Program-made: the position numbers and the translations under genes
Assembly: GCA_003510435.1 (NCBI GenBank)
Contig: DOMK01000006.1
Location: forward strand, 1 to 57,239
Length of the DNA: 57,239 nt
Direction: 5' to 3'
Origin: Candidatus Magasanikiibacteriota bacterium
GTDB lineage: Bacteria > Patescibacteriota > Patescibacteriia > Magasanikbacterales > UBA922
The notes under the pieces: model-generated
Told to the model about the DNA's origin: nothing
What the model saw: the letters and a program-made list of their open reading frames with translations, nothing else
Database searches by the model: none
Part shown: positions 2,467 to 57,239 of the stretch, in pieces
Layout of the letters: every line of letters starts with the position of its first letter
How positions within the stretch are numbered: position 1 is the first letter of the stretch

Positions 2467-2600
2467 TTCGATCCGCCCAGGGCGGAGAGAAATCCCTTTT
2501 TAAAACATTGATCAGTGCCTTATATCAGTTCCTATTTTAATACATTTTTGAACTCTTGAAAAGGGATTCCTCACCCCGACCTTGTCGGGGATTCGGAATT
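2467..2600. repeat. Family-A GC-rich palindromic element, complete copy (~135 bp)
   Basis: Left arm cgatCCGCCCagGGCGGagagaaatccctttt (2467-2500). Right arm aaaagggattcctcaCCCCGACcttGTCGGGGattcggaatt (2561-2600). Arms are mutual inverted repeats, each with its own hairpin. Confidence 0.8.
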
Positions 2601-2777
2601 GATTAAAAAAATAAAGCGACACCTTTTTAGATGCCGCCATTTTTGATACTTTAAGCAAGTACTACTTTAGGCAGCACTGCATGGAGGGAAAATTGTATTA
2701 ATATTATTCATACAAATATATACTACCAAACAGACAGAGAAAAGTCAAATTAAATCACTAGTTATATGTGAACAACA

Positions 2778-2813
2778 AAGGGATCCTTCGACTCGCTTCG
2801 CTCGCTCAGGATT
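2778..2813. repeat. Family-A related element (cctgagcgagcgaagcgagtcgaaggatccctt core)
   Basis: Reverse complement reads aatcctgagcgagcgaagcgagtcgaaggatcccttt. Shares its core with the copies at 3676-3768 and 34004-34060. Confidence 0.6.
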
Positions 2814-2817
2814 AAAA

Positions 2818-3666: not shown

Positions 3667-3675
3667 AGTTTTTTT

Positions 3676-3768
3676 GTCATTCCGAAAGAGCGAAGCGAAT
3701 GAGGTCGAAGATCCTCCGAGGAGGGAATCCCTTTCCTCTGCCTCAGACGTTCTCGCTGTCACGGAAGA
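3676..3768. repeat. Family-A variant element upstream of the SPFH gene
   Basis: gtcattccgaaagagcgaagcgaatgaggtcgaagatcctccgaggagggaatccctttcctc…; shares gtcatyc…gagcgaagcga…gtcgaaggatcc and gagggaatcccttt motifs with other copies. Confidence 0.65.
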
Positions 3769-5482: not shown

Positions 5483-5510
5483 CTTAATCCTTACTCCTTA
5501 TTCCTTTATA

Positions 5511-6871: not shown

Positions 6872-6897
6872 ACACCTAAACAAAGGGTGTTTTTTTA
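6872..6897 (+). terminator. Rho-independent terminator (ACACC-loop-GGTGT + T-run)
   Basis: aaaACACCtaaacaaagGGTGTttttttt after gene 5511..6830. Confidence 0.5.
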
Positions 6898-6926
6898 TTA
6901 GTGTAAATTAGTGTGTAAGATTAGTG
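6897..6926 (+). promoter_or_regulatory. ATTAGTG x3 direct-repeat array abutting the TTGACA -35 of the GC-island gene
   Basis: attagtg (6897-6903), attagtg (6907-6913), attagtg (6920-6926); spacing 10 and 13 nt. TTGACA at 6931-6936. Confidence 0.6.
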
Positions 6927-6993: not shown

Positions 6994-7413
6994 ATGCTCG
7001 ACGTGAACGAATTCCTGTCGTGGTTCGAGGCGGGTCGCTTCAACAGCGTGCTCGCGTTCAAGGACGCGGGCATCGTGGGTAAGAGGGTTGAACAGGTGGC
7101 CCAGGCCATCAAAGCCATCCATGACGTCAACGGGACAACGTTCATGGAAATCATCAGCAACCTCGCTAGTCGGTTCTACGACATGGACGAAAGTGTCCCC
7201 GCCGACTCCGGCCTCGTCGGCGAAGGTGCCGTGGCCATAGCCGCGGCGTTCTCTACACTGTTCAACATGACAGACTTCCCCACCCTGGGAAAGCTCACTG
7301 GCATGCTCTGCGTGTTCGAGGAGGTACTCGAGCACGACTTCAAGCCGAGCGAACCCGGCTACTTGGCCGTAAAGACGGCCGTCGATCATCTGCGTGGACT
7401 TCTCTCCGCCTAG
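6994..7413 (+). CDS. Hypothetical acidic protein (139 aa) encoded in a ~62% GC island
   Basis: ATG preceded by SD ctGGAGGg (6983-6990). TTGACA (6931-6936)-N17-TAATGT (6954-6959) promoter-like signal upstream. Hairpin terminator downstream. Coding strand chosen over the overlapping antisense ORF 6973..7494 because of the RBS/promoter and protein-like composition. Confidence 0.5.
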   Translation: MLDVNEFLSWFEAGRFNSVLAFKDAGIVGKRVEQVAQAIKAIHDVNGTTFMEIISNLASRFYDMDESVPADSGLVGEGAVAIAAAFSTLFNMTDFPTLGKLTGMLCVFEEVLEHDFKPSEPGYLAVKTAVDHLRGLLSA

Positions 7414-7485
7414 CCCTCGCTCCGCTTCAGGAGCAACGTCCCAGGGCGAAGGTGGATTTCGATTCTGTACGTTCTTTTCTCGACT

Positions 7486-10343: not shown

Positions 10344-10364
10344 AATTAATTTGAATTTTATAAA

Positions 10365-10428
10365 TTCTGTTTCATTCCGTTATTTCTGTTTATTCTGTTG
10401 TAAATTAACAACGGAAAGAACAGAATTA
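10365..10428. repeat. Second copy of the TCTGTT/AACAGA element upstream of ribA
   Basis: ttctgtttcattccgttatttctgtttattctgttgtaaattaacaacggaaagaacagaatt. Confidence 0.65.
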
Positions 10429-11573: not shown

Positions 11574-11617
11574 ATAACATTGATTCCACTGATTCTAAAA
11601 ATGATTTCACTGATTAC
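11574..11617 (-). repeat. 38-bp AATCAGTGRAATC-N8-AATCAGTGGAATCAATG element, copy 1, ending 4 nt before the nucleotidyltransferase start
   Basis: Minus strand: gtAATCAGTGAAATCatttttagAATCAGTGGAATCAATGttat-ATG. Confidence 0.7.
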
Positions 11618-11618
11618 T

Positions 11619-11999
11619 TTAAAAATTCTTATAATTAGCAAATCTTTTGACTTCTAGACTTGAATTACAAAAATTTATTAATAAACCTACTTCTAATTTA
11701 CTAGCTTTTAAATATGATATTGTTTGAGTTTGAAATAACTTAGGCATTTCTCCTGATACGGCTTTTAATTCTACCACTACTTTACTATTCACAACTAAAT
11801 CCAACTGAAATGTGCCTACCCACATATTTTGATATTTAATATCAAACTGTTTTTCACTTTCTACACCTAAACCTTCATTTTCTAAAGCCACAATCATTGC
11901 TTTGTGATAGATTCTTTCTTGAAAACCTGGACCAATTTCACGATGTATTCTCATGGCTACACCAATTATTTGTCTAGTTAATTCACTTTCTTTATACAT
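11619..11999 (-). CDS. GxxExxY family protein (PD-(D/E)XK nuclease superfamily)
   Basis: 126 aa; G-x-x-E-x-x-Y signature (IGVAMRIHREIGPGFQERIYHKAM). Flanked on both sides by inverted copies of a 38-bp repeat. Confidence 0.75.
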   Translation of the reverse strand: MYKESELTRQIIGVAMRIHREIGPGFQERIYHKAMIVALENEGLGVESEKQFDIKYQNMWVGTFQLDLVVNSKVVVELKAVSGEMPKLFQTQTISYLKASKLEVGLLINFCNSSLEVKRFANYKNF

Positions 12000-12028
12000 A
12001 GATCTGTGAAATAAAATTAAACAACCAC

Positions 12029-12066
12029 AATCAGTGAAATCTCAAATTAAATCAGTGAAATCAATG
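12029..12066 (+). repeat. 38-bp AATCAGTGAAATC element, copy 2, inverted relative to copy 1; the pair brackets GxxExxY gene 1
   Basis: AATCAGTGAAATCtcaaattaAATCAGTGAAATCAATG. A degenerate unit gatctgtgaaat lies at 12001-12012. Confidence 0.7.
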
Positions 12067-12068
12067 TC

Positions 12069-13166
12069 TTACCACCAAATCAAAAACTTAACAATAACAA
12101 AATACACTTTCATCACCGGATTCCCTACATAAATCACCAAAGGATTTTCTACAGACTTTTCTTGAAAATATATTCCGGCCACAGCATTTTTTAATAATTC
12201 ACGATCAGTAATTTTTTTAATTTTAAAAATATTTTTTCTTTTCTTCAACCACAATTGCCAACTACTTAGTTTTAACCAATACTGATAAACTTTTATTCGT
12301 TCTTTCCACCAGCCACCTTTGAAAGCAAATAACCACAAACCGATTTCTAAAACCAAAGCAATTGGCAAGAGTAATAATAAAGTTGGAATGCGGAAAAACA
12401 TTAGCATTACCCCATAACGATTGCGTTCCATCCAATAAAACTTGGTAATACTCCGGCTAAATTGATACTTGTGATAAAAAATTGAATCTTTTACTACAAC
12501 CGACCTAAAACCAGCTACTCGCAAACGAAATGAATACTCCAAATCTTCATGATACAAGAAAAAATCTTGATCCCACAAACCAAATTCTTTTAATAAGTCT
12601 GCTCGCATCATAAGCGCGGCTCCACTCGCATAACCAACATCACTCACGGCTGGCAAATTTAAATTTTGATGTTTTACTCTATAATCACCACAAAAACCAA
12701 AACCTAAATATTGAAAAGCATTACCCGCACTATTTACCAAATCTGTTTCTGGATGCAATAGTATTAGAGACTGTGCCACACCAATAGTCTTGTCTTTTTC
12801 CATTTGTTCTACCAATGGTTCAAGACAATTAGAGGCCATAAAACCATCATTATTGTGAAAAAACACATAATCAAAGCCATTATCTAGCGCCCATTTTATG
12901 CCTTCATTATTTCCCCCAGCAAAACCCAGGTTGTCTTTTTGGGGAAGCAGTGTCACGTGAGGAATAATCAAACCAGACATGGGCATAACATTTTCTTCTA
13001 TATAGCGGACTGAACTGCCATACTCTGGGTGCGGATTATCCACAATCACAAACTCCACTCTATCTCTGGGATAAGTTAATTTTTTCAAAGACGAAACCAC
13101 GTCGTCTATGTATGGTTCACAATGAAAGGAAAGATATATAATAGCAATGCGAGGATAAGAATTCAT
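12069..13166 (-). CDS. Glycosyltransferase family 2
   Basis: GT2 fold motifs (…VIVDNPHPEYG…, DxD-type …FHNNDGF…), C-terminal TM helices. The track start 13205 is TTG; ATG at 13166 used. Confidence 0.7.
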   Translation of the reverse strand: MNSYPRIAIIYLSFHCEPYIDDVVSSLKKLTYPRDRVEFVIVDNPHPEYGSSVRYIEENVMPMSGLIIPHVTLLPQKDNLGFAGGNNEGIKWALDNGFDYVFFHNNDGFMASNCLEPLVEQMEKDKTIGVAQSLILLHPETDLVNSAGNAFQYLGFGFCGDYRVKHQNLNLPAVSDVGYASGAALMMRADLLKEFGLWDQDFFLYHEDLEYSFRLRVAGFRSVVVKDSIFYHKYQFSRSITKFYWMERNRYGVMLMFFRIPTLLLLLPIALVLEIGLWLFAFKGGWWKERIKVYQYWLKLSSWQLWLKKRKNIFKIKKITDRELLKNAVAGIYFQEKSVENPLVIYVGNPVMKVYFVIVKFLIWW

Positions 13167-13214
13167 AATAAAAAAATTTTCAATTTTACAATTTACAATT
13201 TTCAAAATGTTTGA

Positions 13215-13249
13215 TATTAGAAATTAGGTTAATTAGAAATTAGAAATTT
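13215..13249. repeat. TTAGAAATTAGGTKAATTAGAAATTAGAAATT element, copy 1
   Basis: tattagaaattaggttaattagaaattagaaattt; near-identical copy at 50037-50071. Confidence 0.6.
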
Positions 13250-13299
13250 AAAAAACTTTGCACCTAATATAAACCTTAATTATAATTTGAACTAGAATT

Positions 13300-14139
13300 T
13301 CATTTTCTAGCTCTATAGTATTTATGGTTCCCCTGCCACTTCCACAAAAACTGCCACCAACTCTTGGCATGAATTCTGGCCAATCTATTCTTAAACAAAG
13401 CTTTAAACAGTCCTGGCACTTTGGCCGACTCCCGAGCATGCACATGTCTTATAATAATATCATGAACATAATAAACTGGCCAGCCCGCTTCCCACATCCG
13501 CCGACACCAATCACAATCTTCCAAATACATAAAATATCTTTCTTCATCAAACCAACCTACTTCTTCTACCACTTCTTTGCGCACAATCATAGCTGCTCCC
13601 AAGACCCAGTCTACTGGCCTGGTCTCATTATGATCAAAATCTTTCATTTCTAGCTTGTCAGCATGGCGCTTGATCCATTTATATTTTCGATCAAAATTAA
13701 TATGCTTCAGTGGTTTAATTAAAATTGATGGTAAATCAAACCGATAACAAGAATATTGTAGAGTTCCATCCATATTTAACAACTTTGGACCAATACAACC
13801 AATCTTTCTATGATCATCCATGTATTTTATTAATCGTTCAATTGTTTTAGAATTCTCTGGAATAATAGTATCGCGATTGAGAGCAAAATAATATCTCGCT
13901 TCGGTCGCTTTAAAACCCTTATTATTACCTTTACCAAAACCAATATTACCACCACAATCTATATACTTAACTCCAGAAGGTAAAGCTTCCTTAATTCCAT
14001 CTTTGTTTTCCGAATTATCAGCTACAGTAATTTGGACATCATATGGACAATCTTTAATATCAGCCAAAACAGAATCAACGGCACGTAAAATGTCGTCTTT
14101 CATTAGATAATTTAAAAATACTATATTGATATCCTTCAT
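13300..14139 (-). CDS. Glycosyltransferase family 2
   Basis: …QITVADNSENKDG…, LNRDT, ED…motifs of GT2. An ATTAGTG triple repeat abuts the start codon. Confidence 0.75.
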   Translation of the reverse strand: MKDINIVFLNYLMKDDILRAVDSVLADIKDCPYDVQITVADNSENKDGIKEALPSGVKYIDCGGNIGFGKGNNKGFKATEARYYFALNRDTIIPENSKTIERLIKYMDDHRKIGCIGPKLLNMDGTLQYSCYRFDLPSILIKPLKHINFDRKYKWIKRHADKLEMKDFDHNETRPVDWVLGAAMIVRKEVVEEVGWFDEERYFMYLEDCDWCRRMWEAGWPVYYVHDIIIRHVHARESAKVPGLFKALFKNRLARIHAKSWWQFLWKWQGNHKYYRARK

Positions 14140-14143: not shown

Positions 14144-14173
14144 CACTAATCTTTTACACTAATTCACACTAAT
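14144..14173 (-). promoter_or_regulatory. ATTAGTG x3 direct-repeat array ending 4 nt before the GT2 start codon (14139)
   Basis: cactaat units at 14144-14150, 14157-14163, 14167-14173 (minus-strand ATTAGTG). Confidence 0.6.
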
Positions 14174-14180
14174 AATTAAT

Positions 14181-14654
14181 TTATAAATGCCAATTTTTAT
14201 CTTGATATTTTTCTTTTTTAAATAATTTTTCAATTTCTTCTTTAATTAACATAATATCTTCTTTGTTCAAAGGTTCAAAATCATCATAAAAACCAGTTGA
14301 TCTGTCTGGTAAATAAACTGATTCTGGCCAAGGCTGTTTAAGAGCATTTTTAGCTCTACCTAAAACATGATAATGTAAAAAAGATTTTTTACCTTCCTTG
14401 GCTGCCCAATTCCCCATGTCCTGATAATTTATTTTTATCACTGGTATTCCTTGTTTATTCATAACTGTCTCCATAGCTTCTCCAACCATTATTGTCAAAC
14501 GCATCAACTCAATTGCCCCCCCTGGATCTAATTTTGTTCGGTCAGTAATTTCTTCATTTTTTATTCTTATCCTAATATGCCCACCATCATTTCTTGAAAC
14601 AAAGGGTTTTTCATGGGATTCAACTATAAAATTTTTTGTTTCGTATATTAACAT
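14181..14654 (-). CDS. HIT-superfamily-like protein (hypothetical)
   Basis: Weak HIT-like His cluster (…KSFLHYHVLGR…). Assignment tentative. Confidence 0.3.
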   Translation of the reverse strand: MLIYETKNFIVESHEKPFVSRNDGGHIRIRIKNEEITDRTKLDPGGAIELMRLTIMVGEAMETVMNKQGIPVIKINYQDMGNWAAKEGKKSFLHYHVLGRAKNALKQPWPESVYLPDRSTGFYDDFEPLNKEDIMLIKEEIEKLFKKEKYQDKNWHL

Positions 14655-15242: not shown

Positions 15243-16319
15243 CTAAATCCACCACCGTCTCATCTCTCTCCAACTCACCTTTCTCATTTCTTTAATCTTC
15301 AATCTTTTAATCTTTAAGTCTTTACGATTTTTCCAAATCTCCCCCAACCCTTTCAACACACTTCTATCAAAAATTAAAAAATACACAAACTTCTTTAATT
15401 CATACCATTTTATCCATAGCAAGTCAAGAAGGTAATTTTGCCAATATTCATTTTTATACAGTGTCATTAAATGATTTTTGTAACTATGATACTTCACCCA
15501 CGATGACTGCTTTTTCTTATTAGCCATAGCTACCATGTCCCCTTTTTTCTCCAACCCCTCGGCCGATCTGTCATGATAGGCAACCGTATCAAGCAAAACA
15601 AAGGCTTTATACCCAGCAATCCGTAAACGATAGGCCAAATCCACATCTTCTTTATACAAAAAATATAATTCATCAAACAAACCAACTTTATCAATCACAT
15701 TTTTGCGAAGCATAGGAAAAGCACCAGACACTCCAAAGACTTCCATCGCTTCATCAACTGTATGATGAGACAATTCTAATTTAGATTTTTTATCATCCCA
15801 ATCTTTGCCGGTATATTTTTCTATCACCCTCCTATTTCGCAAAACTTTTAAACCGAGCGTGTCAATTTTATTACTAAAACTCTGTTCTAATCTTTCAGTG
15901 AAATCTTTTTTTAAATCAGTGAAATCAATGTTCCAACGCATAAGTCTTGGACTAACGACTGCTACGTCATCATGACTATCCATAAACTGTACTAATTTCT
16001 CCAAACAATCCGGCATCAAATACATATCTTGGTTAAGCAATAAGACATATTCATTTTCTCCTTGTTCCTTATTCCTTATTCCTTCAAACAATTTATTATG
16101 ACCGCCTGAAAAACCAAGATTTTCCTTTCCTTCAATCAATTCACACTCAATCGGCATACTCTTAATCTCAATCTTAATCTTTTCTACTGTATCATCTGTT
16201 GACCCATTATCCAAAATTACTAATTTAAAATCACGAAAAGTCTGCTTTCTTAACGAATCAAAAAGATACTCTATATATTTAGAGCCATTCCAGGTGACTA
16301 GGTGTATATTTAATTTCAT
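15243..16319 (-). CDS. Glycosyltransferase family 2 (rhamnosyltransferase-like)
   Basis: …LVILDNGSTDDT…, NQDMYL, ED motifs. The track start 16331 is TTG; ATG 16319 (MKLNIHLVTWNGS) used. Contains an in-frame copy of the 38-bp AATCAGTGRAATC element (IDFTDLKKDFTE). Confidence 0.75.
   Translation of the reverse strand: MKLNIHLVTWNGSKYIEYLFDSLRKQTFRDFKLVILDNGSTDDTVEKIKIEIKSMPIECELIEGKENLGFSGGHNKLFEGIRNKEQGENEYVLLLNQDMYLMPDCLEKLVQFMDSHDDVAVVSPRLMRWNIDFTDLKKDFTERLEQSFSNKIDTLGLKVLRNRRVIEKYTGKDWDDKKSKLELSHHTVDEAMEVFGVSGAFPMLRKNVIDKVGLFDELYFLYKEDVDLAYRLRIAGYKAFVLLDTVAYHDRSAEGLEKKGDMVAMANKKKQSSWVKYHSYKNHLMTLYKNEYWQNYLLDLLWIKWYELKKFVYFLIFDRSVLKGLGEIWKNRKDLKIKRLKIKEMRKVSWREMRRWWI
15893..15930 (+). repeat. 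38-bp AATCAGTGAAATC element, copy 3, in frame inside the GT2 gene 15243..16319
   Basis: tttcagtgaaatctttttttaaatcagtgaaatcaatg; encodes IDFTDLKKDFTE on the minus strand. Confidence 0.7.
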
Positions 16320-24080: not shown

Positions 24081-24203
24081 ATCCCGATCCGCCCAGGACG
24101 GAGAGGGATCCCTTTTCAATGCATTTGTCGATGCAAAAATGCGTTTTATCTTTATTCTTTTTTCCGTGCAATAGAAAGGGATTCCTCGCTACGCTCGGAA
24201 TTT
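24081..24203. repeat. Family-A element, complete copy
   Basis: Left arm cccgatCCGCCCaggaCGGagagggatccctttt. Internal palindrome GCATTTgtcgatgcAAAAATGC. Right arm aaagggattcctcgctacgctcggaattt. Overlaps the last 5 codons and stop of the HIT gene. Confidence 0.8.
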
Positions 24204-34937: not shown

Positions 34938-35180
34938 GTTATATATTTAAACTACGCTTTAGATTATACCTTTACACAACACTTTTTTCAAATTTATACC
35001 CCGAAGCCTTGGCGAAGGGGTACAAAAAATCCCAATTTGCACTAACCTCCTCAGTTTATCTCCAATACTTGGAAACAAACTGAGCGGTGCAAACTGGGAT
35101 GATCTTGTCCCCTTAAATTTGTCCGCTCCTAAAGATCCCAATGGGATTGCCCTCCTTGACAGTGAAAAGTCAGGGGTCTC

Positions 35181-38267: not shown

Positions 38268-38310
38268 AAAGGGATCCCTCATCCCGACTGGGTCGGGAAT
38301 TCGGGATTTG
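38268..38310. repeat. Family-A right-arm solo copy directly upstream of recR
   Basis: aaagggatccctcatCCCGACtggGTCGGGaattcgggatttgg. Confidence 0.7.
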
Positions 38311-40098: not shown

Positions 40099-40137
40099 TT
40101 GTCATTCCGATCCGCCCAGGGCGGAGAGGAATCCCTT
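40099..40137. repeat. Family-A left-arm solo copy directly upstream of rplU
   Basis: gtcattccgatCCGCCCagGGCGGagaggaatcccttt. Confidence 0.7.
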
Positions 40138-40248
40138 TCTTATGGGATATAAATGCTCTCACCGTGAACGATCTTAATTTAAATTAATGTAATATATAAT
40201 GTAAACATTACGCAAATATTCTACCAAATAAGCCAAAATAAGTCAAGT

Positions 40249-41745: not shown

Positions 41746-41746
41746 A

Positions 41747-45413: not shown

Positions 45414-46343
45414 TTAAAGTTTTTCTATTACCCGCAGTTTGGCTGATCTGGCTCTTGGATTATTCTTATATTCCTCTTCTGTACAAACTACTGGTTTTTT
45501 ATTTATTAATTTAATTGTTTTGTTCTCTTGACTTTTAAAATAATGTTTTACAATTCTATCTTCTAAAGAATGAAAAGTTATTACTGCCAACCTACCACCT
45601 CGGTGTAAAACCTCAATCGCTTGTGGTAAAACATCCTCTATTACCCCAAACTCATTATTAACAGCTATGCGTAAGGCTTGAAATGTCTTTGTAGCTGGGT
45701 GTAATCCTCCAACCCAAGGAATTTCTTTATCTGTTTTTAATTTTGTTCTGTATACTTTTAAAATTATTTCTACCAAATCTCCGACAGTTTTTATATTTTT
45801 TTCTTTTCTTATTTCCACTATCATCTTAGCAATTTCTTTACTCAACTTTTCTTCACCATATTCTCTAAATATTTTTTCTAACTCTTGTCCATCTAAACTA
45901 TTTATCAAATCTGATACATTTGGATTTTGTAAATTGAAAATTGTAAATTGAAAATTACTCCCATATCTCATGTCCAGAAGTTCATCTGTCTTTTCGAAAC
46001 TAAATCCTCTACCTCGTTCTTCAAACTGTGGTGTTGACCAACCAAAATCCATTAGTATTCCATTGATTGGATTAAACTTATTTTCCTCTACAATCGTTTT
46101 TAAATTAATAAAGTTATTACGGACAAATATTACCTGTGCATCAAATTTATATAAATATTGTTTGGCTCTTAAGATTGCTTCTGGATCAGCATCAATTCCT
46201 AATAATTTTCCTGTGGTCCCAATCTGTTCTAAAATCTTTTCACTGTGTCCCGCGTCACCCAAGGTACAATCAATGACGTGCATCCCAGACTGGAGTTGTA
46301 AACCTTCTATAACTTCATTAAGCAGTACGGGAATATGACGCAT
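45414..46343 (-). CDS. rsmH: 16S rRNA (cytosine1402-N4)-methyltransferase
   Basis: MRHIPVLLNEV… and SAM motif (DCTLGDAGHS). Contains an in-frame AATTGAAAATTG-type repeat (SNFQFTIFNLQN). Confidence 0.9.
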   Translation of the reverse strand: MRHIPVLLNEVIEGLQLQSGMHVIDCTLGDAGHSEKILEQIGTTGKLLGIDADPEAILRAKQYLYKFDAQVIFVRNNFINLKTIVEENKFNPINGILMDFGWSTPQFEERGRGFSFEKTDELLDMRYGSNFQFTIFNLQNPNVSDLINSLDGQELEKIFREYGEEKLSKEIAKMIVEIRKEKNIKTVGDLVEIILKVYRTKLKTDKEIPWVGGLHPATKTFQALRIAVNNEFGVIEDVLPQAIEVLHRGGRLAVITFHSLEDRIVKHYFKSQENKTIKLINKKPVVCTEEEYKNNPRARSAKLRVIEKL

Positions 46344-46417
46344 ACTTTAAATTCTCAATTTTCAATAACCAATTTTCAACTATTTGAAAATTGAAAATTC
46401 GTAAATTGAAAATTTAT

Positions 46418-46846
46418 TTAGATTCCTAAATTAAACATTTCTTCAGCAATTTTATTACTATCTTTTTCTGTTTTTACTTTATAATTTTCCCAATTTTTCT
46501 GATCCCAAAGTTCGAGGCGGTTGTATAGACCAGCCACAACTACGTTCTTTTTGAGACCAGCAAAACTGCGAAGATATTCTGGCAACATTATTCTGCCTTG
46601 TTTATCAATATCTACGTCCATAGCACCAGCAAGCATCAACCGAGCAAATGCGCGAGTGTTGGCTTGAGAAAATGGTAAATTGGCTAATTTTTCTGCCAAC
46701 TTTTGCCATTCATTTTTGGTATACAAAAACAAACAGTTATCTAATCCTCTGGTCACAACTGCGCCTTTAATACTTGGACGAAACTTTTTTGGTATAGCCA
46801 ATCGTCCTTTTTCATCTAGATTGTGCTGGTATTCGCCAATAAACAT
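46418..46846 (-). CDS. mraZ: Transcriptional regulator MraZ
   Basis: MFIGEYQHNLDEKGRLAIP… two MraZ repeats. Three ATTAGTG direct repeats end 4 nt before the ATG. Confidence 0.9.
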   Translation of the reverse strand: MFIGEYQHNLDEKGRLAIPKKFRPSIKGAVVTRGLDNCLFLYTKNEWQKLAEKLANLPFSQANTRAFARLMLAGAMDVDIDKQGRIMLPEYLRSFAGLKKNVVVAGLYNRLELWDQKNWENYKVKTEKDSNKIAEEMFNLGI

Positions 46847-46850: not shown

Positions 46851-46879
46851 CACTAATCTTAACACTAATCGACACTAAT
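46851..46879 (-). promoter_or_regulatory. ATTAGTG x3 direct-repeat array ending 4 nt before the mraZ start codon; candidate MraZ operator
   Basis: cactaat units at 46851-46857, 46863-46869, 46873-46879. Minus strand reads ATTAGTGtcgATTAGTGttaagATTAGTGatct-ATG. Confidence 0.65.
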
Positions 46880-46921
46880 TTTTGATTTAACTTATAGAGG
46901 GACAGGCATTTCCTCCATAAA

Positions 46922-47299
46922 TTAATTTACTAATCTCTTATATCTAATTCCATCAGGTGTGATTAAAATTATTATTCCCAATTTTTTATTAGTAGCTTTT
47001 AAATATGTAAGAACTTGTTTTATATGCATCGGATAAAAATCATCTGCTACTTTTAATTCTACTACAATTTTATTTTCTACCAAAAAATCTAATGAGTAAC
47101 TCCCAACTTTCTTACCTTTATGAGTGACTCTTACTTTGTGTTCACGTTCAAAACTAAAACATTTTTTTGTCAATTCATCAGCATAAGCACGCTGATAAAA
47201 CAATTCGTAATGTCCGTATTTTAAACTGTTATAAACTGCATAAGCACAACCAACCAACTCATAACATTCATCTTTGTAGATTAAATCAACCCCGTTCAT
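46922..47299 (-). CDS. GxxExxY family protein (PD-(D/E)XK nuclease superfamily)
   Basis: 125 aa; GCAYAVYNSLKYGHYELFYQRAY signature. Flanked by inverted ATTAGTG arrays. Confidence 0.75.
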   Translation of the reverse strand: MNGVDLIYKDECYELVGCAYAVYNSLKYGHYELFYQRAYADELTKKCFSFEREHKVRVTHKGKKVGSYSLDFLVENKIVVELKVADDFYPMHIKQVLTYLKATNKKLGIIILITPDGIRYKRLVN

Positions 47300-47309
47300 A
47301 TCTCACCAC

Positions 47310-47392
47310 ATTAGTATAGGTTAGTGCTAAGATTAGTAGCTTCCAAATTATTCACACAATCACATTAGTGCAGATTAGTGTTAAGATTAGTG
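47310..47392 (+). promoter_or_regulatory. Two ATTAGTR x3 arrays upstream of GxxExxY gene 2, oriented towards the downstream + strand
   Basis: attagta/gttagtg/attagta (47310-47338) and attagtg/attagtg/attagtg (47364-47392). Confidence 0.55.
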
Positions 47393-48549: not shown

Positions 48550-49950
48550 TCAATTTCTTTTCAATTTCCGTAATGATCTCTGATATGTAATCGCAAATCT
48601 ATGAGCTTCATCTCTCACTTGGATTAACAAATTTTGATTTTCTTTTACCCATTCGGTAAATTCTCTTTTTTTATCAGTGGAATCTTTTCCAAAATCAGTG
48701 AAATCAATGTGGAATTCATTCTTTTTTCTATCCGGACCTTTAGCAATTCCCACAACGGGAATTTTAAATTTATTTGTTCTAATAATTTCCACGGCCTTAT
48801 TTACTTGCGAGACTCCCCCATCTACCAAAATTACATCAGGCAATTTCCAAATATCACCACTTTCTACTTTCAACTTTCTACTTTCAACTTGAGGAGCATG
48901 GCGCAGCCTGCGACGAATCACTTCTGCCATACAATCAACGTCACTTTGCCCTATTACAGTTTTTATTTTAAATTTTCTATATTGTGATTTGTTTGGATAA
49001 CCATTTTCAAATACCACCATACTACCAACCATACCAGTTGAACCAAGATTAGAAATATCATAACCTTCTATTCGAAGTTCTGAGTTCTGAGTTCTGAGTT
49101 CTGAGTTCTCCTGTAAAAAACTTTTATTCAACAAAGCAATGTCTTGTATTTTTTGTAAATTTTTTATTTGATCACGCAATCTTCCAGCTTCCTCAAACTC
49201 ATGAATTTTAGAAGACAATTTCATTTTCTTTTCCAAATCACGAATCAAACCTTTTTTATTACCACGCAAAAATTTTACTAATGGATTAATTACTTTCTTT
49301 TTATATTCAGACGAACTTATTTCCCCAGTACACACACCCAAACATTGTCCCATTTGACGATATAGACAAGGCTTACAAAGCTTACCAAGCTCACAAGGCT
49401 TACAATGTGATATATAAAATAATTTTCTTAAAAGTCCCATCATCTCGCGTGTTTTTAATCCTGGATACGGTCCAAAAATATGTTGAAACTGTTGTAATTG
49501 TTCTAGTTGTTGTAAATGTCTTTCACTTACAACATTTTTAACATCTACAACATTTGGAACATTACCAAGCTCATGCGCTCTAATCGTCTTAACTTGAGGG
49601 AAAACATCTTTTGTAATACAAATATAATTCCAACTCTTATCATCTTTCAAATCCACGTTATACTTTGGTTGATATTTTTTAATTGTATTCGCTTCCAAAA
49701 TAATCGCTTCCAAAACCGAATCAGTTTGTTTTATTTTTATATCCACCACCTCGTCGATCATAGCTTCGATAGGTCGCAATCCCCCTCCCTTTTTAAGGGA
49801 GGGCTGGGGTGGGTTCCGAAAATAACTCCTAACCCTGCTCTTCAAACTTGTCGCTTTACCAATATAAATCAACTCTTTCTGTTTATTATAGAAGAGATAA
49901 ATACCTGGTTCGTTGGGAAATGATTTGATTTTTTTTTCTAAATTAGCCAT
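48550..49950 (-). CDS. uvrC: Excinuclease ABC subunit C (short form lacking C-terminal HhH domain)
   Basis: GIY-YIG N-terminus (GIYLFYNKQKELIYIGKATSLKSRVRSYF), Cys-rich region, UvrC endonuclease core (…VRDEAHRFAITYQR…). Only 466 aa. Contains a heptanucleotide SSR and two small in-frame repeat insertions. Confidence 0.85.
   Translation of the reverse strand: MANLEKKIKSFPNEPGIYLFYNKQKELIYIGKATSLKSRVRSYFRNPPQPSLKKGGGLRPIEAMIDEVVDIKIKQTDSVLEAIILEANTIKKYQPKYNVDLKDDKSWNYICITKDVFPQVKTIRAHELGNVPNVVDVKNVVSERHLQQLEQLQQFQHIFGPYPGLKTREMMGLLRKLFYISHCKPCELGKLCKPCLYRQMGQCLGVCTGEISSSEYKKKVINPLVKFLRGNKKGLIRDLEKKMKLSSKIHEFEEAGRLRDQIKNLQKIQDIALLNKSFLQENSELRTQNSELRIEGYDISNLGSTGMVGSMVVFENGYPNKSQYRKFKIKTVIGQSDVDCMAEVIRRRLRHAPQVESRKLKVESGDIWKLPDVILVDGGVSQVNKAVEIIRTNKFKIPVVGIAKGPDRKKNEFHIDFTDFGKDSTDKKREFTEWVKENQNLLIQVRDEAHRFAITYQRSLRKLKRN
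48672..48709 (+). repeat. 38-bp AATCAGTGRAATC element, copy 4, in frame inside uvrC
   Basis: tatcagtggaatcttttccaaaatcagtgaaatcaatg; encodes HIDFTDFGKDSTDK on the minus strand. Confidence 0.7.
49076..49110. repeat. Heptanucleotide SSR (AGTTCTG)x5 inside uvrC (in frame as ELRTQNS repeats)
   Basis: agttctgagttctgagttctgagttctgagttctc. Confidence 0.85.
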
Positions 49951-50036
49951 ATTTAAAATTCCAAAGATGAAATAACAAAATTTAAATTTTTAAATTTGTC
50001 ATTGATTTGACATTGGTAATTTGGCATTTGAAATTT

Positions 50037-50071
50037 ATTAGAAATTAGGTGAATTAGAAATTAGAAATTCA
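50037..50071. repeat. TTAGAAATTAGGTKAATTAGAAATTAGAAATT element, copy 2, overlapping the uvrA stop codon
   Basis: tattagaaattaggtgaattagaaattagaaattca. Confidence 0.6.
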
Positions 50072-52822
50072 CAATATTTTCTTTAAATATTGTCCTGTAT
50101 AACTATACCCAATTTTTGCCACAGTCTCTGGTGTTCCCACACAAACCACTTCTCCCCCTTTATCTCCGCCTTCGGGACCAAGATCAATAATCCAATCCGC
50201 GCATTTTATTACATCTAGATTGTGTTCAATCACCATTACTGTATTACCTTTGGAAACCAATTCTTGTAACACCCCAATTAATTTTTTTACATCTTCATAA
50301 TGCAAACCAGTCGTTGGCTCATCCAACAAAAACAAAGTCTTGGTTGTGCTAGGCTTGGCCAATTCGCGAGATAATTTTATTCGCTGGGCTTCACCACCTG
50401 ACAAAGTCTTGGCCGATTGACCAAGAGTAAGATAATCCAAACCCACTTCATTTAGAACTTTTAGTTTATCATAAATAAAAGGAATGTCTTCAAAAAAACT
50501 TTCGGCTTCTTCAATGGTCATATTCAAAACATCAGAAATATTTTTTTCTTTATAATGAATTTGCAAAGTTTCATTATTAAATCTTTTACCTTTACACACA
50601 TCACACACAATTTCTACACTGGGCAAAAAATGCATTTCAATTTCTAATGTTCCTCTACCCTCACAATTATCACATCTACCTCCCGGACGATTGAAACTAA
50701 ACCGGCCATTTTTGTAACCACGCATTTTGGCTTCGGGGGTGGAGGCATACAAATCGCGAATATGAGTCCAGGTACCAGTATAAGTCGCTGGATTGGAACG
50801 AGGTGATCGACCAATGGCGCTCTGGTCAATCTTAATGATTTTATCAATATATTCTGTATTTAAGACTTGTTTATGATCACCAACTTTTTTCTTTTTTTCT
50901 TCTGGTGCATGACCATGATAGTTTAATCTATTTGATACTGTTCGATATAAAATATCATGCATCAGAGTAGATTTGCCCGAACCAGACACGCCCGTGAGGC
51001 AAACAAATCGACGTAAAGGAATTTCTACATTAATATTTTTCAAATTGTGTTCACTCGCCCCTTTAATTTTTATTTTCGCGGTTGTATTATCCACCTTTCT
51101 TCTCTTTTCTGGTGCTTCAATATTTTTCTCTCGACGCAAATATTGTCCAGTCAAAGATTTTTTTGGATCACCAATTTTTAAACAATTTTTAAGTTCATCC
51201 TGAATGAGTCCAACAGGACGAATGAAGGATCTTTCGGAGCCAACATTTATCAAACTACTAATATTTTTTGTACCGCCATAGACTTTTCCTTCGAAAGATC
51301 CTTCACCCATTCGCTGTTGCTCAGGGTTCAGGATGAACTGTAAAGGTCCAGAATAGACTATCTCCCCACCATGCGTCCCCGCCCCTGGTCCAATATCCAC
51401 AATCCAATCACTAGCTAAAATTGTATCTTCATCATGTTCTACCACAATAATCGTATTACCCACGTCACACAAATTGCGTAAAGTCCGTACCAATTGATCA
51501 TTGTCTTTTTGATGTAAACCAATCGTCGGTTCATCCAACACATACAAAGCACCCACTAATTTTGTCCCCACTTGCGAAGCCAAACGAATGCGTTGGGCTT
51601 CTCCACCAGACAGAGTACCAGCCGTGCGATTGAGAGTCAGATAATGCAACCCAACATCATACATAAACTGCAATCTATTTTCTATTTCACGCAATACAGC
51701 TCCGGCAATTTCCTGTTCTCTCTCGGGCAAATTTAAAATTACCTCAGCAAAAAATTCACGTACCTCACCAATATCCATACTTACTACTTCCCAAATATTT
51801 TTGCCAAAGATCTTTACACTTAATGCATTGGCATTCAATCTTTTGCCCTCACACTTTGGACATACATCCTCACTAAACAAAGACTTGGTACCAAGACCAG
51901 TGCAATAATCACAATAACCATACGGACTGTTAAAACTAAACAATCTAGGTTCAATCTCTGGAAAACTAAAACCATCCTTTGGACAAGAATATTCTGTAGA
52001 AAAAATTTGTTCCCGACTTCGCTGAAGCTTCGTCGGGCAAGCTTCATCATTAGGATAAATCACAGTACAAAGTCCATTGGACAAATCCACGGCTGTTTCT
52101 ACTGCTTCAGCCAAACGCTTTTCTCCGTCACTATTCTGAATTCTAAAATCTGAAATCTGCAATTTGTCAATCACCACTTCAATCGTATGCTTCTTATCTT
52201 TACTAAGTTCAATTCTATTTTTCAAACTCTTCATTTTTCCATCTACTCGCACTTCCAAAAATCCAGAATTATAAACATCATAGAGCATTTGGTAATATTC
52301 CCCTTTTCTACCACGTACAACCGGCGCCAAAATTATCAACTCGTGGTTCGTAGTTCGTAATTTCGTATTTTTCGTAGTTCGTATCTTATTTACTGACTCC
52401 ATTATTCTTTCCTGCATTTGGTCAATCGTCATCTTCTCTATTTTTGTATTACAAAGTGGACAGTGAGGTTCACCAATTCGTGCAAACAAAACTCGTAAAT
52501 AATCATAAATTTCCGTAATCGTAGCTACAGTGGAACGTGGATTGGCACTATGCGCTTTTTGATCAATCGAAATCGCTGGCGACAAACCTTCAATCTCATC
52601 CACATCAGGTTTTTGCATCCCACCCAAAAATTGTCGCGCATAAGCTGACAAAGATTCTATATACCGACGTTGTCCTTCAGCAAAAATGGTATCAAAAGCT
52701 AGGCTCGATTTTCCCGAACCTGATAAACCTGTAAACACAATCATTTTGTTGCGTGGCAATTCAAGAGAAATGTTTTTTAGATTGTGTTCTCTAGCACCAC
52801 GGATTATTATTTTTTCTTGCAT
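50069..52822 (-). CDS. uvrA: Excinuclease ABC subunit A
   Basis: Two ABC ATPase modules ([14 protein letters not shown]; [10 protein letters not shown]), zinc-finger Cys pairs, 917 aa. Confidence 0.95.
52346..52386. repeat. TTCGTA-type short repeats in frame in uvrA (encode [12 protein letters not shown])
   Basis: ggttcgtagttcgtaatttcgtatttttcgtagttcgtatc. Confidence 0.7.
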
Positions 52823-53813: not shown

Positions 53814-53864
53814 AATTTACTATCAGTCTAAATCAGTCTGTATAAATCTGTTTAAATCAATGCT

Positions 53865-55043
53865 TTACTTCAAAATATACGCTTTCATTGGCGGGAAGCC
53901 ATTAAAATAAACTGAACAATAAGACAAAGTATAAGCACCTGTAGAAAGAATAAACATCTTGTCCCCTTCTTTCATCCCCTTGGGAAATTTATACTGATAT
54001 TTTTCATACATAATGTCCATACTGTCACAAGTCGGACCAGCTAAAATAACTTTTTCTGTATTACGGTCAGTCTTTTTGGCTTTTTCCCAGAAGATTGGAT
54101 ATTTAATTGATTCATCAATAGTTTCTATTAAACCATTAAATTTACCCGCATCCAAATAAACCCATTTGTTTCTGTCCAAACTTGATTTTCTGGAAATCAT
54201 GACAATCTGGGTCACCATTACACCACAATTACCTACCATAGATCTACCTGGTTCAATCAAAATCTCAGGAAAATCAGTCGGGAAATCCTCTTGTAAAAAT
54301 CTGGTCACATATTTGGTATAGGTTTCCAAAGGATGAGTAGAGTGAACATATCTGGTTGGAAAACCACCACCCAGATTAATCGCTTTCAATTTTATCTTAT
54401 GTTGTTTCAAAGCATCAAATAAATATTTGCAGAAAGAAATTGCATTATCCCATGAACCAATATCACGTTGTTGTGAACCAACATGAAATGACAGGCCATA
54501 AGGAATAATATTCATTTTGCTCGCTTTTAATATCAACTGATAAATCATGTCTGGATGCGCCCCAAATTTTCTGGACAATGGCCAGTCTGCATTACCACCT
54601 TCCAAAATAATTCTAAATAATACTTTTGAACCTGGAGCATGTTTAGCAATTTCTTGTACATCTTCCCAAGAATCTGTGGCATACAGACGAATGCCTTTTT
54701 TATAAGCATAAGCAATATGTTCAACTTTCTTGATTGGATTGCCATAACTAAGACGTTCTGGTGGAATACCCAGGCGCAAACATTGATCTATTTCATAAAT
54801 TGAAGCCACATCAAAATTTGAACCTTTTTTCTCTAATAATTTTACAATCTCATCCATTGGATTGGCTTTGACTGCATAATAAATTTTGGCAAAAGGCATT
54901 AGAGAATGCAAATTGTCATAATTTTCCTCAACCTTCTTTGGATTGACAATTAAAAAAGGCGTTTCCTTGCCTTTAACAAATTCTTTAATTTTTTTGACTT
55001 CTTTGGTAGTTAAATACTTATAGATTGAATTTTTCTCTTTCAT
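53865..55043 (-). CDS. Fold-type III PLP-dependent decarboxylase (diaminopimelate/carboxynorspermidine decarboxylase-like)
   Basis: PLP-lysine context (YAVKANPMDEIVKLL) and Orn/DAP/Arg decarboxylase family-2 layout. 392 aa. Confidence 0.7.
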   Translation of the reverse strand: MKEKNSIYKYLTTKEVKKIKEFVKGKETPFLIVNPKKVEENYDNLHSLMPFAKIYYAVKANPMDEIVKLLEKKGSNFDVASIYEIDQCLRLGIPPERLSYGNPIKKVEHIAYAYKKGIRLYATDSWEDVQEIAKHAPGSKVLFRIILEGGNADWPLSRKFGAHPDMIYQLILKASKMNIIPYGLSFHVGSQQRDIGSWDNAISFCKYLFDALKQHKIKLKAINLGGGFPTRYVHSTHPLETYTKYVTRFLQEDFPTDFPEILIEPGRSMVGNCGVMVTQIVMISRKSSLDRNKWVYLDAGKFNGLIETIDESIKYPIFWEKAKKTDRNTEKVILAGPTCDSMDIMYEKYQYKFPKGMKEGDKMFILSTGAYTLSYCSVYFNGFPPMKAYILK

Positions 55044-55256
55044 AGAAATTTACCCCGCATTTTCAAGATGGCTTGAAGATGTTTTTGACTATTAATATTT
55101 GCCGTCAAGGGGATAAAAAATTAATAATACAATTATAACACCGTCTACGAAAAAATCAATAAAACTGTTGATAACCGTTTATTTGCGACGCAGGTGAGTG
55201 GAAAGCAAATTCGCATTTGATTTCCCGAGCCGAGGAGTAAATACAGGACAGATCCT

Positions 55257-57239
55257 TTACTTCTTCATTTTTCTAAGCTCTTTTAACTCATCTCTAAGTA
55301 TAGCTGCTAGTTCAAACTGCAAATCTTTGGCTGCCTCCCGCATTTTTTCTTCTTTATCTTTAATAATTTCCTCAATTGGCCTGCTATCACCAAGTAAATC
55401 CAATTCAACTGTTTTATTTTTCGTAGTTCGTGTTTTCGTATCTTTCGTATTTCGTATTCCAAATTCTTCCAAAATATTTTTTATGGTTTTTTGTATGGTA
55501 CGCGGAGTAATATTATGTTTTTTATTATATGCCAATTGAATCTTGCGCCGACGATCAGTTTCTTTAATCGCTTTTGCAATTGACTTTGTAATATTGTCAG
55601 CATACATCACAACCTGACCATTGACATTTCTGGCTGCTCGACCAATCGTCTGGATCAAACTAATTTCATTACGCAAAAAGCCTTCTTTGTCTGCATCCAA
55701 AATGGCCACCAGAGATACTTCTGGAATATCCAAGCCTTCACGCAATAAATTGACACCAACAATTACATCAATTTCTCCCCGACGCAATTTGGTAATAATA
55801 TCCACTCGTTCAATTGTTTTGATATCACTATGTAAATATAATGTTTTTATTTTTTTCTCTTTCAAATAATCATTCAAATCTTCAGACATTTTCTTTGTCA
55901 GTGTCGTCACCAAAACCCGCTCTTTATTTTTTATCCGCTCTTCAATTCTAATTATTAAATCTTCTACTTGAGATAAATTTTCCTTTCGTAATTTCGTACC
56001 TTTCGTATTTCGTATCCCTGTTATTGGTCTAATCACCACCTCTGGATCAATCAAACCAGTTGGACGAACTACTTGTTCTACTATCTTGTCACTAGATTTA
56101 ATTTCAAATTCACTTGGTGTAGCTGAAACATAAATCGTCTGATTAACTCTCTTTTCAAATTCTTTAAAATTTAACGGCCGATTATCACGTGCGCTTGGCA
56201 ATCTAAAACCATGTTCTACCAAAGTATCTTTGCGTGATTTGTCTCCGGCATACATTCCACCAATTTGAGGTACTGTGACGTGGGATTCATCTATAACTGT
56301 TAGGTAGTTCATTCCGATCCGCCGATGAGGCGGAGAGGAATCCCTTTTTGAAACAATATCATTTGCATTAAAAATATCTTTATTTAATTTGATTTCCATT
56401 GCATTAGAAAGGGATCTCTCGGCTTCGCCTCGAGATGACGCCAAAAAATAATCCAACAATGTATATGGTGGCTCCCCTGCCATTCGTCCATCAAAATGTC
56501 GAGAATAATTTTCTATACCATTGCAATAGCCAATATTTTTTATCATTTCCAAATCATATTTTACTCTCCGTTTCAAACGTTCGTATTCCAAAACTTTTCC
56601 TTGTTTTTTAAATAATTCTAATTGTGATTTTAATTCTTCTTTGATTGTTTTGAAAGCTCGTTCGCGCATTTCTGGACTAGCCACATAGTGTTTGGCTGGA
56701 AATAGCCACATATCATTGCTTTCTACTTTTACTTTTCTAGTCAATGCATCTAATACCTCTATAATCTCTATACCCTCTCCTATTTCTAATCTATATATTA
56801 CTTCTTCGTTTACTGGCATTACTTCAAACACTTGTCCGCGTAACCGAAAAGTTCCCCGTTTCAAATCAGAATTCGTGCGTTCAAATTGCATAGCAATTAA
56901 TTGCGCCAACAAATCTTCACGATTTAATATTTGCCCTTTTTCCAAATGCAAAACAATTTTTTCATATTCTTCTGGTGAACCAAGACCGTAGATGCAAGAG
57001 ACTGAAGCGACGATAATAACATCTTGACGAGTCAAAAGTGCTTGGGTACAAGCATGACGCAGGCGATCAATCTCTTCATTTATTTGCGCTTCTTTTTCTA
57101 TATAAGTATCACTACCCGGCATGTAAGCCTCAGGTTGATAATAATCATAATATGACACAAAATATTCTACGGCATTCTCAGGAAAAAATTCTCTAAATTC
57201 ATTACACAGTTGCGCAGCCAAAGTTTTATTATGAGCAAT
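55257..57239 (-). CDS. uvrB: Excinuclease ABC subunit B, N-terminus beyond the window end
   Basis: Helicase motifs (DESHVTVPQIGGMYAGD…), C-terminal UVR domain (…AAKDLQFELAAILRDEL…). Carries a 135-bp in-frame repeat-element insertion just before the DESH motif and two TTCGTA-repeat insertions. Confidence 0.9.
   Translation of the reverse strand: MAHNKTLAAQLCNEFREFFPENAVEYFVSYYDYYQPEAYMPGSDTYIEKEAQINEEIDRLRHACTQALLTRQDVIIVASVSCIYGLGSPEEYEKIVLHLEKGQILNREDLLAQLIAMQFERTNSDLKRGTFRLRGQVFEVMPVNEEVIYRLEIGEGIEIIEVLDALTRKVKVESNDMWLFPAKHYVASPEMRERAFKTIKEELKSQLELFKKQGKVLEYERLKRRVKYDLEMIKNIGYCNGIENYSRHFDGRMAGEPPYTLLDYFLASSRGEAERSLSNAMEIKLNKDIFNANDIVSKRDSSPPHRRIGMNYLTVIDESHVTVPQIGGMYAGDKSRKDTLVEHGFRLPSARDNRPLNFKEFEKRVNQTIYVSATPSEFEIKSSDKIVEQVVRPTGLIDPEVVIRPITGIRNTKGTKLRKENLSQVEDLIIRIEERIKNKERVLVTTLTKKMSEDLNDYLKEKKIKTLYLHSDIKTIERVDIITKLRRGEIDVIVGVNLLREGLDIPEVSLVAILDADKEGFLRNEISLIQTIGRAARNVNGQVVMYADNITKSIAKAIKETDRRRKIQLAYNKKHNITPRTIQKTIKNILEEFGIRNTKDTKTRTTKNKTVELDLLGDSRPIEEIIKDKEEKMREAAKDLQFELAAILRDELKELRKMKK
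55419..55458. repeat. TTCGTA-type short repeats in frame in the uvrB C-terminal linker (encode RNTKDTKTRTTKN)
   Basis: tttcgtagttcgtgttttcgtatctttcgtatttcgtatt. Confidence 0.7.
55984..56016. repeat. TTCGTA-type short repeats in frame in uvrB (encode IRNTKGTKLRKEN)
   Basis: tttcgtaatttcgtacctttcgtatttcgtatc. Confidence 0.7.
56309..56443. repeat. Family-A element, complete copy, inserted in frame (135 bp, 45 aa) in uvrB
   Basis: Left arm cattccgatCCGCCgatgagGCGGagaggaatcccttttt. Right arm agaaagggatctctcggcttcgcctcgagatgacgcc. Encodes ASSRGEAERSLSNAMEIKLNKDIFNANDIVSKRDSSPPHRRIGMN between YTLLDYFL and YLTVIDESH. Confidence 0.85.

Follow-up and report, generated by a model that had tools for sequence, protein, structure and literature searches.

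Hairpin repeats of a Candidatus Magasanikiibacteriota genome as probable members of the Ssn-related motif class, with paired, gene-less copies in frame in uvrA, uvrB and a glycosyltransferase gene

Palindromic repeats that lie in frame within conserved protein genes are known as Rickettsia palindromic elements (RPEs), which measure 100-150 bp, occur in a small AT-rich genome and are presumed to be translated as extra surface segments of the host proteins. Their description reportedly goes back to Ogata et al. in 2000. The neisserial intergenic mosaic elements (NIMEs), in turn, are intergenic arrays. A further class of hairpin repeats includes the Neisseria Transformation Sequence NTS (CGTCATTCCCGCGMAVGCGGGAATCYRG), which contains dRS3 and has been generalised as Ssn-related motifs (SRM) (Nat Commun 2025;16:2388, PMC11893778). 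NTS is bound and cut, as single-stranded DNA (ssDNA) only, by SsnA, a single-domain GIY-YIG nuclease of 94 aa; SsnA relies on the three nt upstream of the palindrome for cleavage and on the C that follows for binding (PMC11893778). The ssn genes are typically flanked by their own motif, and the arrangement NTS-ssnA-NTS was likened to an insertion sequence; Rickettsia is among the SRM-rich genera, and Patescibacteria are not mentioned (PMC11893778). Here, a family of hairpin repeats is described from a contig of 57,239 nt (DOMK01000006.1, positions 1 to 57,239 of the forward strand, assembly GCA_003510435.1) of a Candidatus Magasanikiibacteriota bacterium, which belongs to the Candidate Phyla Radiation (CPR); the whole of this stretch is referred to as the window. 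The repeats probably are hairpin repeats of the SRM class, and their paired forms, the composites, would be gene-less derivatives of SRM-ssn-SRM units that resemble MITEs (miniature transposable elements with inverted repeats) and were spread by an Ssn nuclease acting in trans, with the copies inside genes as in-frame survivors.

The building block of the family is a hairpin module with the layout (G/T)TC-AT-YYC-GA-[variable GC hairpin]-GA-GRR-AT-C(CCTTT), of which the window contains 15 complete copies and one truncated by the window start. The 5' (G/T)TC is optional and is followed by the basal stem AT-YYC, by GA (at times GAAT or GATC) and by a GC-rich apical hairpin of highly variable length and sequence (CGCCCAGGGCG, CCCGACnnnGTCGGG, CCCCGAAGGGG or a GCGAAGC type), while the 3' half consists of GA(G), the other stem side GRR-AT and CCCTTT. 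Each arm is an imperfect hairpin, and with DNA parameters the modules fold as hairpins, as the preliminary description of the window, made from the letters alone, had proposed. The basal stem covaries perfectly in all 13 aligned modules, which use five stem variants (ATTCC/GGAAT, ATCCC/GGGAT, ATCCT/AGGAT, ATCTC/GAGAT and ATTTC/GAAAT), and the C immediately 3' of the palindrome (...GRRAT-C) is present in all modules. Ten modules combine as inverted pairs into five composites of 112-138 bp with spacers of 14-70 nt; the rest of the set comprises four solo modules, one compound copy (3676-3768) and the module cut by the window start. In the DNA fold of the uvrB composite, CCCTTT pairs with the AAAGGG of the partner arm, giving a three-helix shape.

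In a window with a GC fraction of 0.31-0.40, a generic pattern that demands stem complementarity yielded 12 matches, against a mean of 0.96 and a maximum of six in 200 dinucleotide-preserving shuffles. One of the 12 matches (12139-12169) is AT-rich noise, and the candidate modules at 9423, 12139, 36609 and 54686 were discarded as chance matches. The preliminary description had listed ten copies of a single family with paired, mutually inverted hairpin arms. All ten are present at the stated coordinates and form a single family, but the complete copies had been understated: the composite in uvrA (51197-51334) was missed and was exposed once the junction was relaxed to ATCYYT. The copy at 3676-3768, given there as a solo arm or variant, is real but compound or degenerate rather than a clean arm. 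The elements and their host genes are as follows.

1-27, minus strand: partial module ...CACCCCTTCGGGG-ATTCGGGAT, cut by the window start, with the outer half as in the modules 2560-2600 and 38268-38310
2465-2600, no single strand: complete intergenic composite of 136 bp (left module 2465-2499, plus; spacer of about 60 nt; right module 2560-2600, minus) between the 5' end of an aldehyde dehydrogenase-like gene and the 3' end of the SPFH gene; DNA fold z = -3.9, stops in six of six frames
2777-2813, minus strand: solo module with an ATCCT...AGGAT stem and a GCGAAGC apex, 4 nt downstream of the SPFH stop codon
3676-3768, no single strand: compound or degenerate copy, a long module 3676-3737 (plus, beginning GTCATTCC) and behind it a partial arm of 31 nt; the true SPFH start (METINPM...) lies 12 nt downstream
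24081-24203, no single strand: complete composite of 123 bp between the NUDIX start and the HIT gene; stops in three of six frames
33680-34873, minus strand: host gene for a GT4/GT1-family glycosyltransferase, 100% identical to DEB09_01670 of a Candidatus Magasanikbacteria metagenome-assembled genome (MAG)
34004-34115, no single strand: composite with a short spacer, in frame in the GT4 gene, about 37 aa (protein residues about 254-290)
34881-34938, plus strand: solo module in which a long hairpin is nested, with the GT4 start codon 8 nt downstream; DNA fold z = -5.3
38268-38310, minus strand: solo module abutting the recR start (true start at about 38317)
40099-40138, plus strand: solo module (TTGTCATTCCGATCCGCCCAGGGCGGAGAGGAATCCCTT), 5 nt upstream of the true rplU start (MFAVIETGG)
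50069-52822, minus strand: host gene uvrA
51197-51334, no single strand: complete composite of 138 bp (46 aa), in frame in uvrA (UvrA residues about 497-542), with the junction variant ATCTTTCG...CGAAAGAT and the termini TTCAT...ATGAA
55257-57239, minus strand: host gene uvrB, with the N-terminus past the window end; E = 6e-206 to the UvrB chain 9gy7_E
56309-56443, no single strand: complete composite of 135 bp, amounting to 45 aa in the uvrB frame, with LLDYF and YLTVIDESH on either side (left module 56309-56347, plus; right module 56408-56441, minus)

The relation to the SRM class is most evident in other genomes, whose loci are numbered here with the prefix L. At five of them (L065, L116, L028, L055 and L093), two inverted modules of the window type bracket a small GIY-YIG gene at a distance of 7-30 nt on each side; the gene of about 290 nt encodes a single-domain protein of 93-96 aa, and the whole unit measures about 400 bp. 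The two proteins scanned (L065 and L116) both match Pfam PF01541 with E of about 1e-16, and at L028 and L055 the right module supplies the C-terminal codons of the GIY-YIG protein. Of the genomes concerned, one is a Patescibacteria MAG (L028), one a Pseudomonadales MAG and one a MAG whose GIY-YIG gene contains in-frame TGA codons; the remaining two are unclassified MAGs. The protein of L028 is 45% identical (E = 6e-26) to a 94-aa GIY-YIG open reading frame (ORF) of N. gonorrhoeae; exact NTS repeats lie around this ORF, and its length and NTS context identify it as the gonococcal SsnA orthologue. In addition, an ssn gene lies beside modules of the sister junction type in a Uhrbacteria genome (L124), and another in a Parcubacteria genome (L126) has a complete CCCTT-type composite 20 nt upstream. 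Since the window composites have the same two ends, with a spacer of 14-70 nt in place of the gene, they are best read as non-autonomous derivatives of such units.

The published account of Ssn (PMC11893778) was found through 11-mers of the element terminus, and a comparison of both repeat types reveals a number of common features. The module type has in common with SRM/NTS a semi-palindrome of the ATTCC...GGAAT kind that is directly followed by a C, and also the 5' GTCAT, the latter being typical of the modules in other genomes and present in four of the 15 complete window modules; the modules are oriented, multi-copy and spread over many phyla, their semi-palindrome forms a hairpin and lies in the 20-50-nt range of the class, and it is this module type that flanks the 93-96-aa GIY-YIG genes on both sides. 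They differ in their GA/GA internal loop and much longer, hypervariable apex, in the conserved CCCTTT extension that pairs between arms and in the inverted pairs of 112-138 bp, and only 2% of NTS are genic in Neisseria, whereas in-frame genic copies occur here. NIMEs and dRS3 likewise place short inverted hairpin repeats of the ATTCC(C)...GGGAAT type around segments of 50-150 bp, but exact ATTCCC-N8-GGGAAT has no match in the window and NIMEs are not in-frame genic inserts. The resemblance to RPEs, on which the preliminary description relied, holds for behaviour (element size, in-frame genic insertion and, by analogy, presumed translation), for which RPEs are the best analogue, and not for identity; the host phylum differs, and the SRM of the NTS/dRS3 type are the closer known relative. 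The identity of the window repeats is closer to Ssn/SRM (NTS, dRS3) than to any MITE or REP family.

Two families of mobile repeats with a comparable layout need to be considered as well. REP/REPIN-RAYT systems and BIMEs have the same architecture, in which a conserved 5' oligonucleotide plus hairpin forms inverted doublets around a short spacer, target-site duplications are missing and a small gene is flanked by its own repeats, and this analogy is drawn in PMC11893778 too; REPs, however, are extragenic by definition. Mobilisation of the paired hairpins by a REP-associated tyrosine (Y1/HUH) transposase or by an IS200/IS605-like "peel and paste" process is nevertheless very unlikely, given that the 5' motif is GTCAT and not GTAG, that the bracketed gene encodes a GIY-YIG enzyme and not a Y1 transposase and that no Y1_Tnp match was obtained among 40 window ORFs scanned against Pfam. 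The second candidate is a classical MITE, a deletion derivative of an insertion sequence with a DDE transposase that moves by cut-and-paste and whose terminal inverted repeats (TGTCAT...ATGACA) serve as transposase binding sites. Direct repeats of at least 2 nt flank only one of 47 complete elements and none of the 47 has a target-site duplication of at least 3 nt; the flanking T...A is part of the inverted terminus. Furthermore, small GIY-YIG genes are the only genes tightly bracketed by inverted modules among the 118 loci listed, where neither a transposase nor a DDE-transposase parent was found. A classical MITE is highly improbable on these grounds, even though the composites, with their terminal inverted repeats, their length of 110-140 bp and their many copies in many genomes, recall the size, non-autonomy and gene-boundary location of bacterial MITEs such as Correia, Nezha and BOX (reviewed in PMC10969869). 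Long-range inverted pairs at L027 and L094, 1.7-2.4 kb apart, were rejected as transposase units, as they enclose ordinary genes.

The distribution of the module was obtained by scanning one genome per species with the pattern ATTCCGA-N(8-38)-GAGGAATCCCTTT, which detected at least 116 loci. Patescibacteria among the listed loci include Magasanik-, Gracili-, Peregrini-, Peri-, Sacchari-, Woese-, Parcu- and Moranii-bacteria, and others belong to Chloroflexota, Acidobacteriota, MAGs of Gammaproteobacteria, Bacteroidota isolates (Brumimicrobium), WOR-3 and Fimbriimonadia. Far from being confined to CPR bacteria, the module spans many phyla; the gtcatcctgagcgaagcgaaggatc motif, which the preliminary description had likened to one in other bacterial sequences, is indeed widespread in other bacteria. 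Nearly all listed modules elsewhere are preceded by tGTC (start tGTCAT), and many have an inverted partner 12-90 nt downstream, resulting in the arrangement TGTCAT...CCCTTT-spacer-AAAGGG...ATGACA. Among the candidates outside the full scan pattern, stem triplets are perfectly complementary in 160 of 195, with eight triplet pairs. Scanning viral contigs gave only two loci, no Ssn-like gene was detected in the phage collection, and the metagenome scan for the lineage-specific module CCGCCCAGGGCGGAGAGRRATCCCTT returned no matches. In the MAG CAXXWT01 of an unclassified bacterium (L008, L021, L023, L039, L047, L063 and L099), an SRM pair of 143 bp forms the inner part of a larger repeat of about 225 bp, which has its own outer inverted repeat (GACTGTCGATAAA...TTTATCGACAGTC) and occurs in many copies.

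Many of the window copies lie exactly at gene boundaries. Those at 3676, 38268 and 40099 lie 0-12 nt upstream of the true SPFH, recR and rplU starts and create spurious N-terminal ORF extensions, in agreement with the preliminary description, and the composite 24081-24203 does the same to the NUDIX ORF. Its right module also encodes the end of the HIT gene, where the element supplies the stop codon as had been claimed, together with the final four codons (K-F-R-A) rather than five. Such positions, at the starts of rplU, recR, SPFH, NUDIX and GT4 and at the stops of HIT and SPFH, raise the question of whether the hairpins serve the host as terminators, mRNA stabilisers or signals that control recombination or transformation, being kept by selection and present in genes only incidentally. 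Compensatory change does preserve the pairing of the hairpins, and NTS repeats modulate transformation in Neisseria (PMC11893778). It is unlikely that this accounts for the family: a simple intrinsic-terminator scan does not call the modules, a search of the whole window at the gathering threshold of Rfam retrieved no family, and four housekeeping ORFs contain the same element at positions at which a terminator or nuclease site would do harm. A host function accounts for the persistence of the repeats and not for their origin or copy number and is therefore compatible with the exaptation of a mobile element. No tRNAs are present in the window.

Three composites lie in frame within window genes, with 135 nt in uvrB, 138 nt in uvrA and about 111 nt in the GT4 gene. 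One of six frames is open in the uvrB and GT4 copies and two of six in the uvrA copy, the frame in use being open in all of them. In UvrB, residues 260-304 have no counterpart in solved UvrB structures (9gy7_E has two residues there), and the insert amounts to 45 aa by comparison with these structures and to about 40 aa if measured against the linker of CPR relatives, which has 9 aa. This linker, from LLDYF to [IV]IDESH, measures 9 aa in 41 of the best 120 UvrB homologues and 8-60 aa in the others; the taxon-named homologues are all CPR or unclassified except for two, which are listed as Kapabacteria. A syntenic relative has an empty site (TTT AGA AGT GAT AAG GAT TTT), and another relative (P0002/L001) carries the same element family at the same uvrB site, with conserved termini, junction and spacer and completely different apical hairpins. 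For GT4, orthologues of 49-58% identity have 354-361 aa compared with 397 aa, and most of them lack the segment of about 37 aa. Both in-frame copies of the preliminary description stand; a sequence search of solved structures gave no match for GT4. The 46-aa segment of UvrA has no equivalent at that site in an aligned Uhrbacteria UvrA, and a syntenic relative (L002) has a different, NTS-like insert at the site used in the window (module 14390-14413, GTCATCCCCGCGTAGGCGGGGATC, translated SVIPAKAGI...). The uvrA gene of L002 also contains an in-frame composite of the CCCTT type (13439-13566) at a different site, at about aa 240.

The same comparisons speak against the view that the extra segments of UvrB, UvrA and GT4 go back to ancestral loops specific to the lineage, or to assembly chimeras, and resemble the repeats by chance. 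The 9-aa linker of CPR UvrB, as opposed to 2 aa in solved non-CPR structures, is a point in its favour, but this view is already refuted and retains next to no probability. Both modules are present in the genic segments, joined in uvrB by a spacer that can be aligned with intergenic copies, and close relatives have empty sites. In addition, three contigs from other samples (under ERZ5996431, ERZ909580 and SRR6487867), produced by different assemblers, are 100% identical over the shared 6.9-13.4 kb, and two of the three include the uvrB insert. Judged by these alignments, the extra segments in uvrB, uvrA and GT4 are insertions and neither ancestral loops nor assembly artefacts. Presumably, they are translated as flexible loops of 37-46 aa. 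An AlphaFold2 model of UvrB is of medium quality, with a mean pLDDT of 66 and values below 50 over the insert and over a second hot spot (see below), which is compatible with a flexible loop and does not prove surface exposure.

Further copies occur in the same genome just past the right end of the window. An in-frame copy (HNSEPAGEESLSNAS...) inserts about 40 aa into lepA, and three modules were located there (L119, 2466-2494, 5433-5458 and 6814-6868), of which one lies within the lepA insert, one gives rise to a spurious N-terminal extension of RNase J and one overlaps the RNase J stop codon. An intergenic stretch of about 450 nt that separates RNase J from uvrB (L119, about 7000-7450) is GC-rich in an AT-rich genome; its sole Rfam match, Phe_leader, falls below the gathering score (40.5 versus 55 bits).

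Insertions recur at the uvrB and GT4 sites in many CPR lineages, and this hot-spot character had escaped the preliminary description. An alignment of 121 UvrB sequences has two main internal indel sites, with at least ten extra residues in 35 sequences at the hot spot before DESH and in 30 sequences at the second hot spot after P[IV]TG. The peptides at these hot spots are GTCAT...hairpin...ATGAC elements translated in several frames, for example VIASEAKQS...LAMT, VILNEAQRSEES...AQDD and CHSRVGGNPE...GMT. The loops at the UvrB hot spots also host unrelated repeat classes (PPLxKGG... and short-word arrays), and so does the GT4 loop. While insertion at the recurrent sites might be targeted, beyond mere tolerance, the accumulation of unrelated repeats in the same loops makes loop tolerance the more economical explanation. 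In a rough neighbour-joining tree of UvrB, the window and P0002, which have the same element, fall into sister clades, with relatives that have shorter linkers or empty sites interspersed; this topology fits a single old insertion followed by decay and repeated insertion alike. At L094 (3647-5641), the beta-hairpin/domain 2 region of another Patescibacteria UvrB provides a third site, with a module-derived in-frame insert (...SASWRTDVMEESLNNKNSRDPSAPLRCGRDDN...).

A second, unrelated repeat is also translated in frame in the two repair genes. It consists of 38-nt arrays of ACGAA words on the minus coding strand, at 52347-52384 in uvrA and at 55420-55457 and 55978-56015 in uvrB, with IRNTKGTKLRKEN as one translation; the copy at 55978 sits in the second UvrB hot spot.

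For the SRM-type elements, it is proposed that an Ssn-type nuclease supplied in trans would recognise the hairpin in ssDNA and nick just 5' of it, after which replication or repair would copy the element to a new site without target-site duplication. Solo modules would then represent half-elements. In a gene-dense CPR genome, the copies expected to survive would be those at gene boundaries or those that are in frame and stop-free in tolerant loops, the latter being translated as loops in UvrB, UvrA, GT4 and, outside the window, LepA. Several points weigh against this proposal. A motif scan and tblastn (E up to 1-10) detected no ssn or other GIY-YIG gene, either in the 57-kb window or in the adjoining 7.8 kb, so that the trans-acting nuclease of this genome is an assumption. 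The published SRM pattern HGTCWYN(0-2)YYVSBRHN(0-5)WNVSBRGN(0-2)RNCYNB has no match on either strand of the window; it is violated by the long apex and by the GA that follows the 3-nt stem. Eight of the 15 complete modules lack a (G/T)TCAT start and begin with nAAT or nTAT; only four start with GTCAT (3676, 34004, 40099 and, on the minus strand, 56441) and three with TTCAT (56309, 51197 and, on the minus strand, 51334), so that many copies may no longer be substrates. Since the composites are only 52-67% identical to each other, their sequences mark the copies as old, and many may be inert; mobility and the manner of copying are inferred. SsnA itself has been shown only to restrict transforming ssDNA and not to transpose anything, and the translation of the inserts is deduced from open frames alone.

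A broader version of the proposal is possible but doubtful, namely that SRM-ssn-SRM units constitute an unrecognised class of mobile elements driven by a GIY-YIG ssDNA nuclease and inserting without target-site duplication, whose gene-less forms would be the "RPEs" of CPR bacteria and would, in many lineages, repeatedly colonise the same loops of core proteins (UvrA, UvrB, LepA and glycosyltransferases). By extension, the RPEs of Rickettsia might be the same as gene-less SRM derivatives.

Other repeats of the window are arranged around genes as well. Two small PD-(D/E)XK nuclease genes (11619-11999 and 46922-47299; PF13366 PDDEXK_3 / TIGR04256 GxxExxY) are bracketed by inverted arrays of short words in the regions 11577-12067 and 46851-47392, which are of the TCAGTGAAATC type (79% complementary) and the CACTAATC type (93%), and the bracketing words recur at 15895-15931, 48674-48710, 6895-6926 and 14144-14175. 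By analogy, this looks like a second arrangement of a small nuclease plus its own dispersed repeats, parallel to ssn/SRM. Most intergenic regions contain arrays of 6-11-nt words, with a distinct word per region and often as inverted pairs flanking genes; examples are found at 1094-1206, 10345-10404, 13169-13259, 25268-25854, 45924-46420 and 50036-50080.

The characterisation of NTS as hairpin repeats cut by Ssn dates only from 2025, in Neisseria, and the original authors could only speculate on the likeness to insertion sequences. The present comparison adds a concrete, mobile-element-like pair of forms, a gene-bearing unit of about 400 bp and gene-less derivatives of 112-138 bp. In the literature searched, no earlier link between RPEs and Ssn and nothing relevant on palindromic elements or MITEs of CPR bacteria was found; relative to it, the CCCTTT-joined paired composite and its relation to gene-bearing units, the presence of the repeat class in CPR and the retention of in-frame copies by uvrA, uvrB, lepA and a glycosyltransferase gene, in loops that are hit recurrently in different CPR lineages, are new. 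The in-frame genic location is unusual for the SRM class, and the host genes serve essential functions in DNA repair, translation and the cell envelope. For the annotation of CPR genomes, the elements result in spurious ORF extensions, chimeric C-termini and length-variable orthologues, and they break short-read assemblies, while the inserts provide natural maps of permissive loops in UvrA and UvrB. If SRM-ssn-SRM units do form an unrecognised class of mobile elements, they would be a general source of protein-length variation in CPR bacteria.

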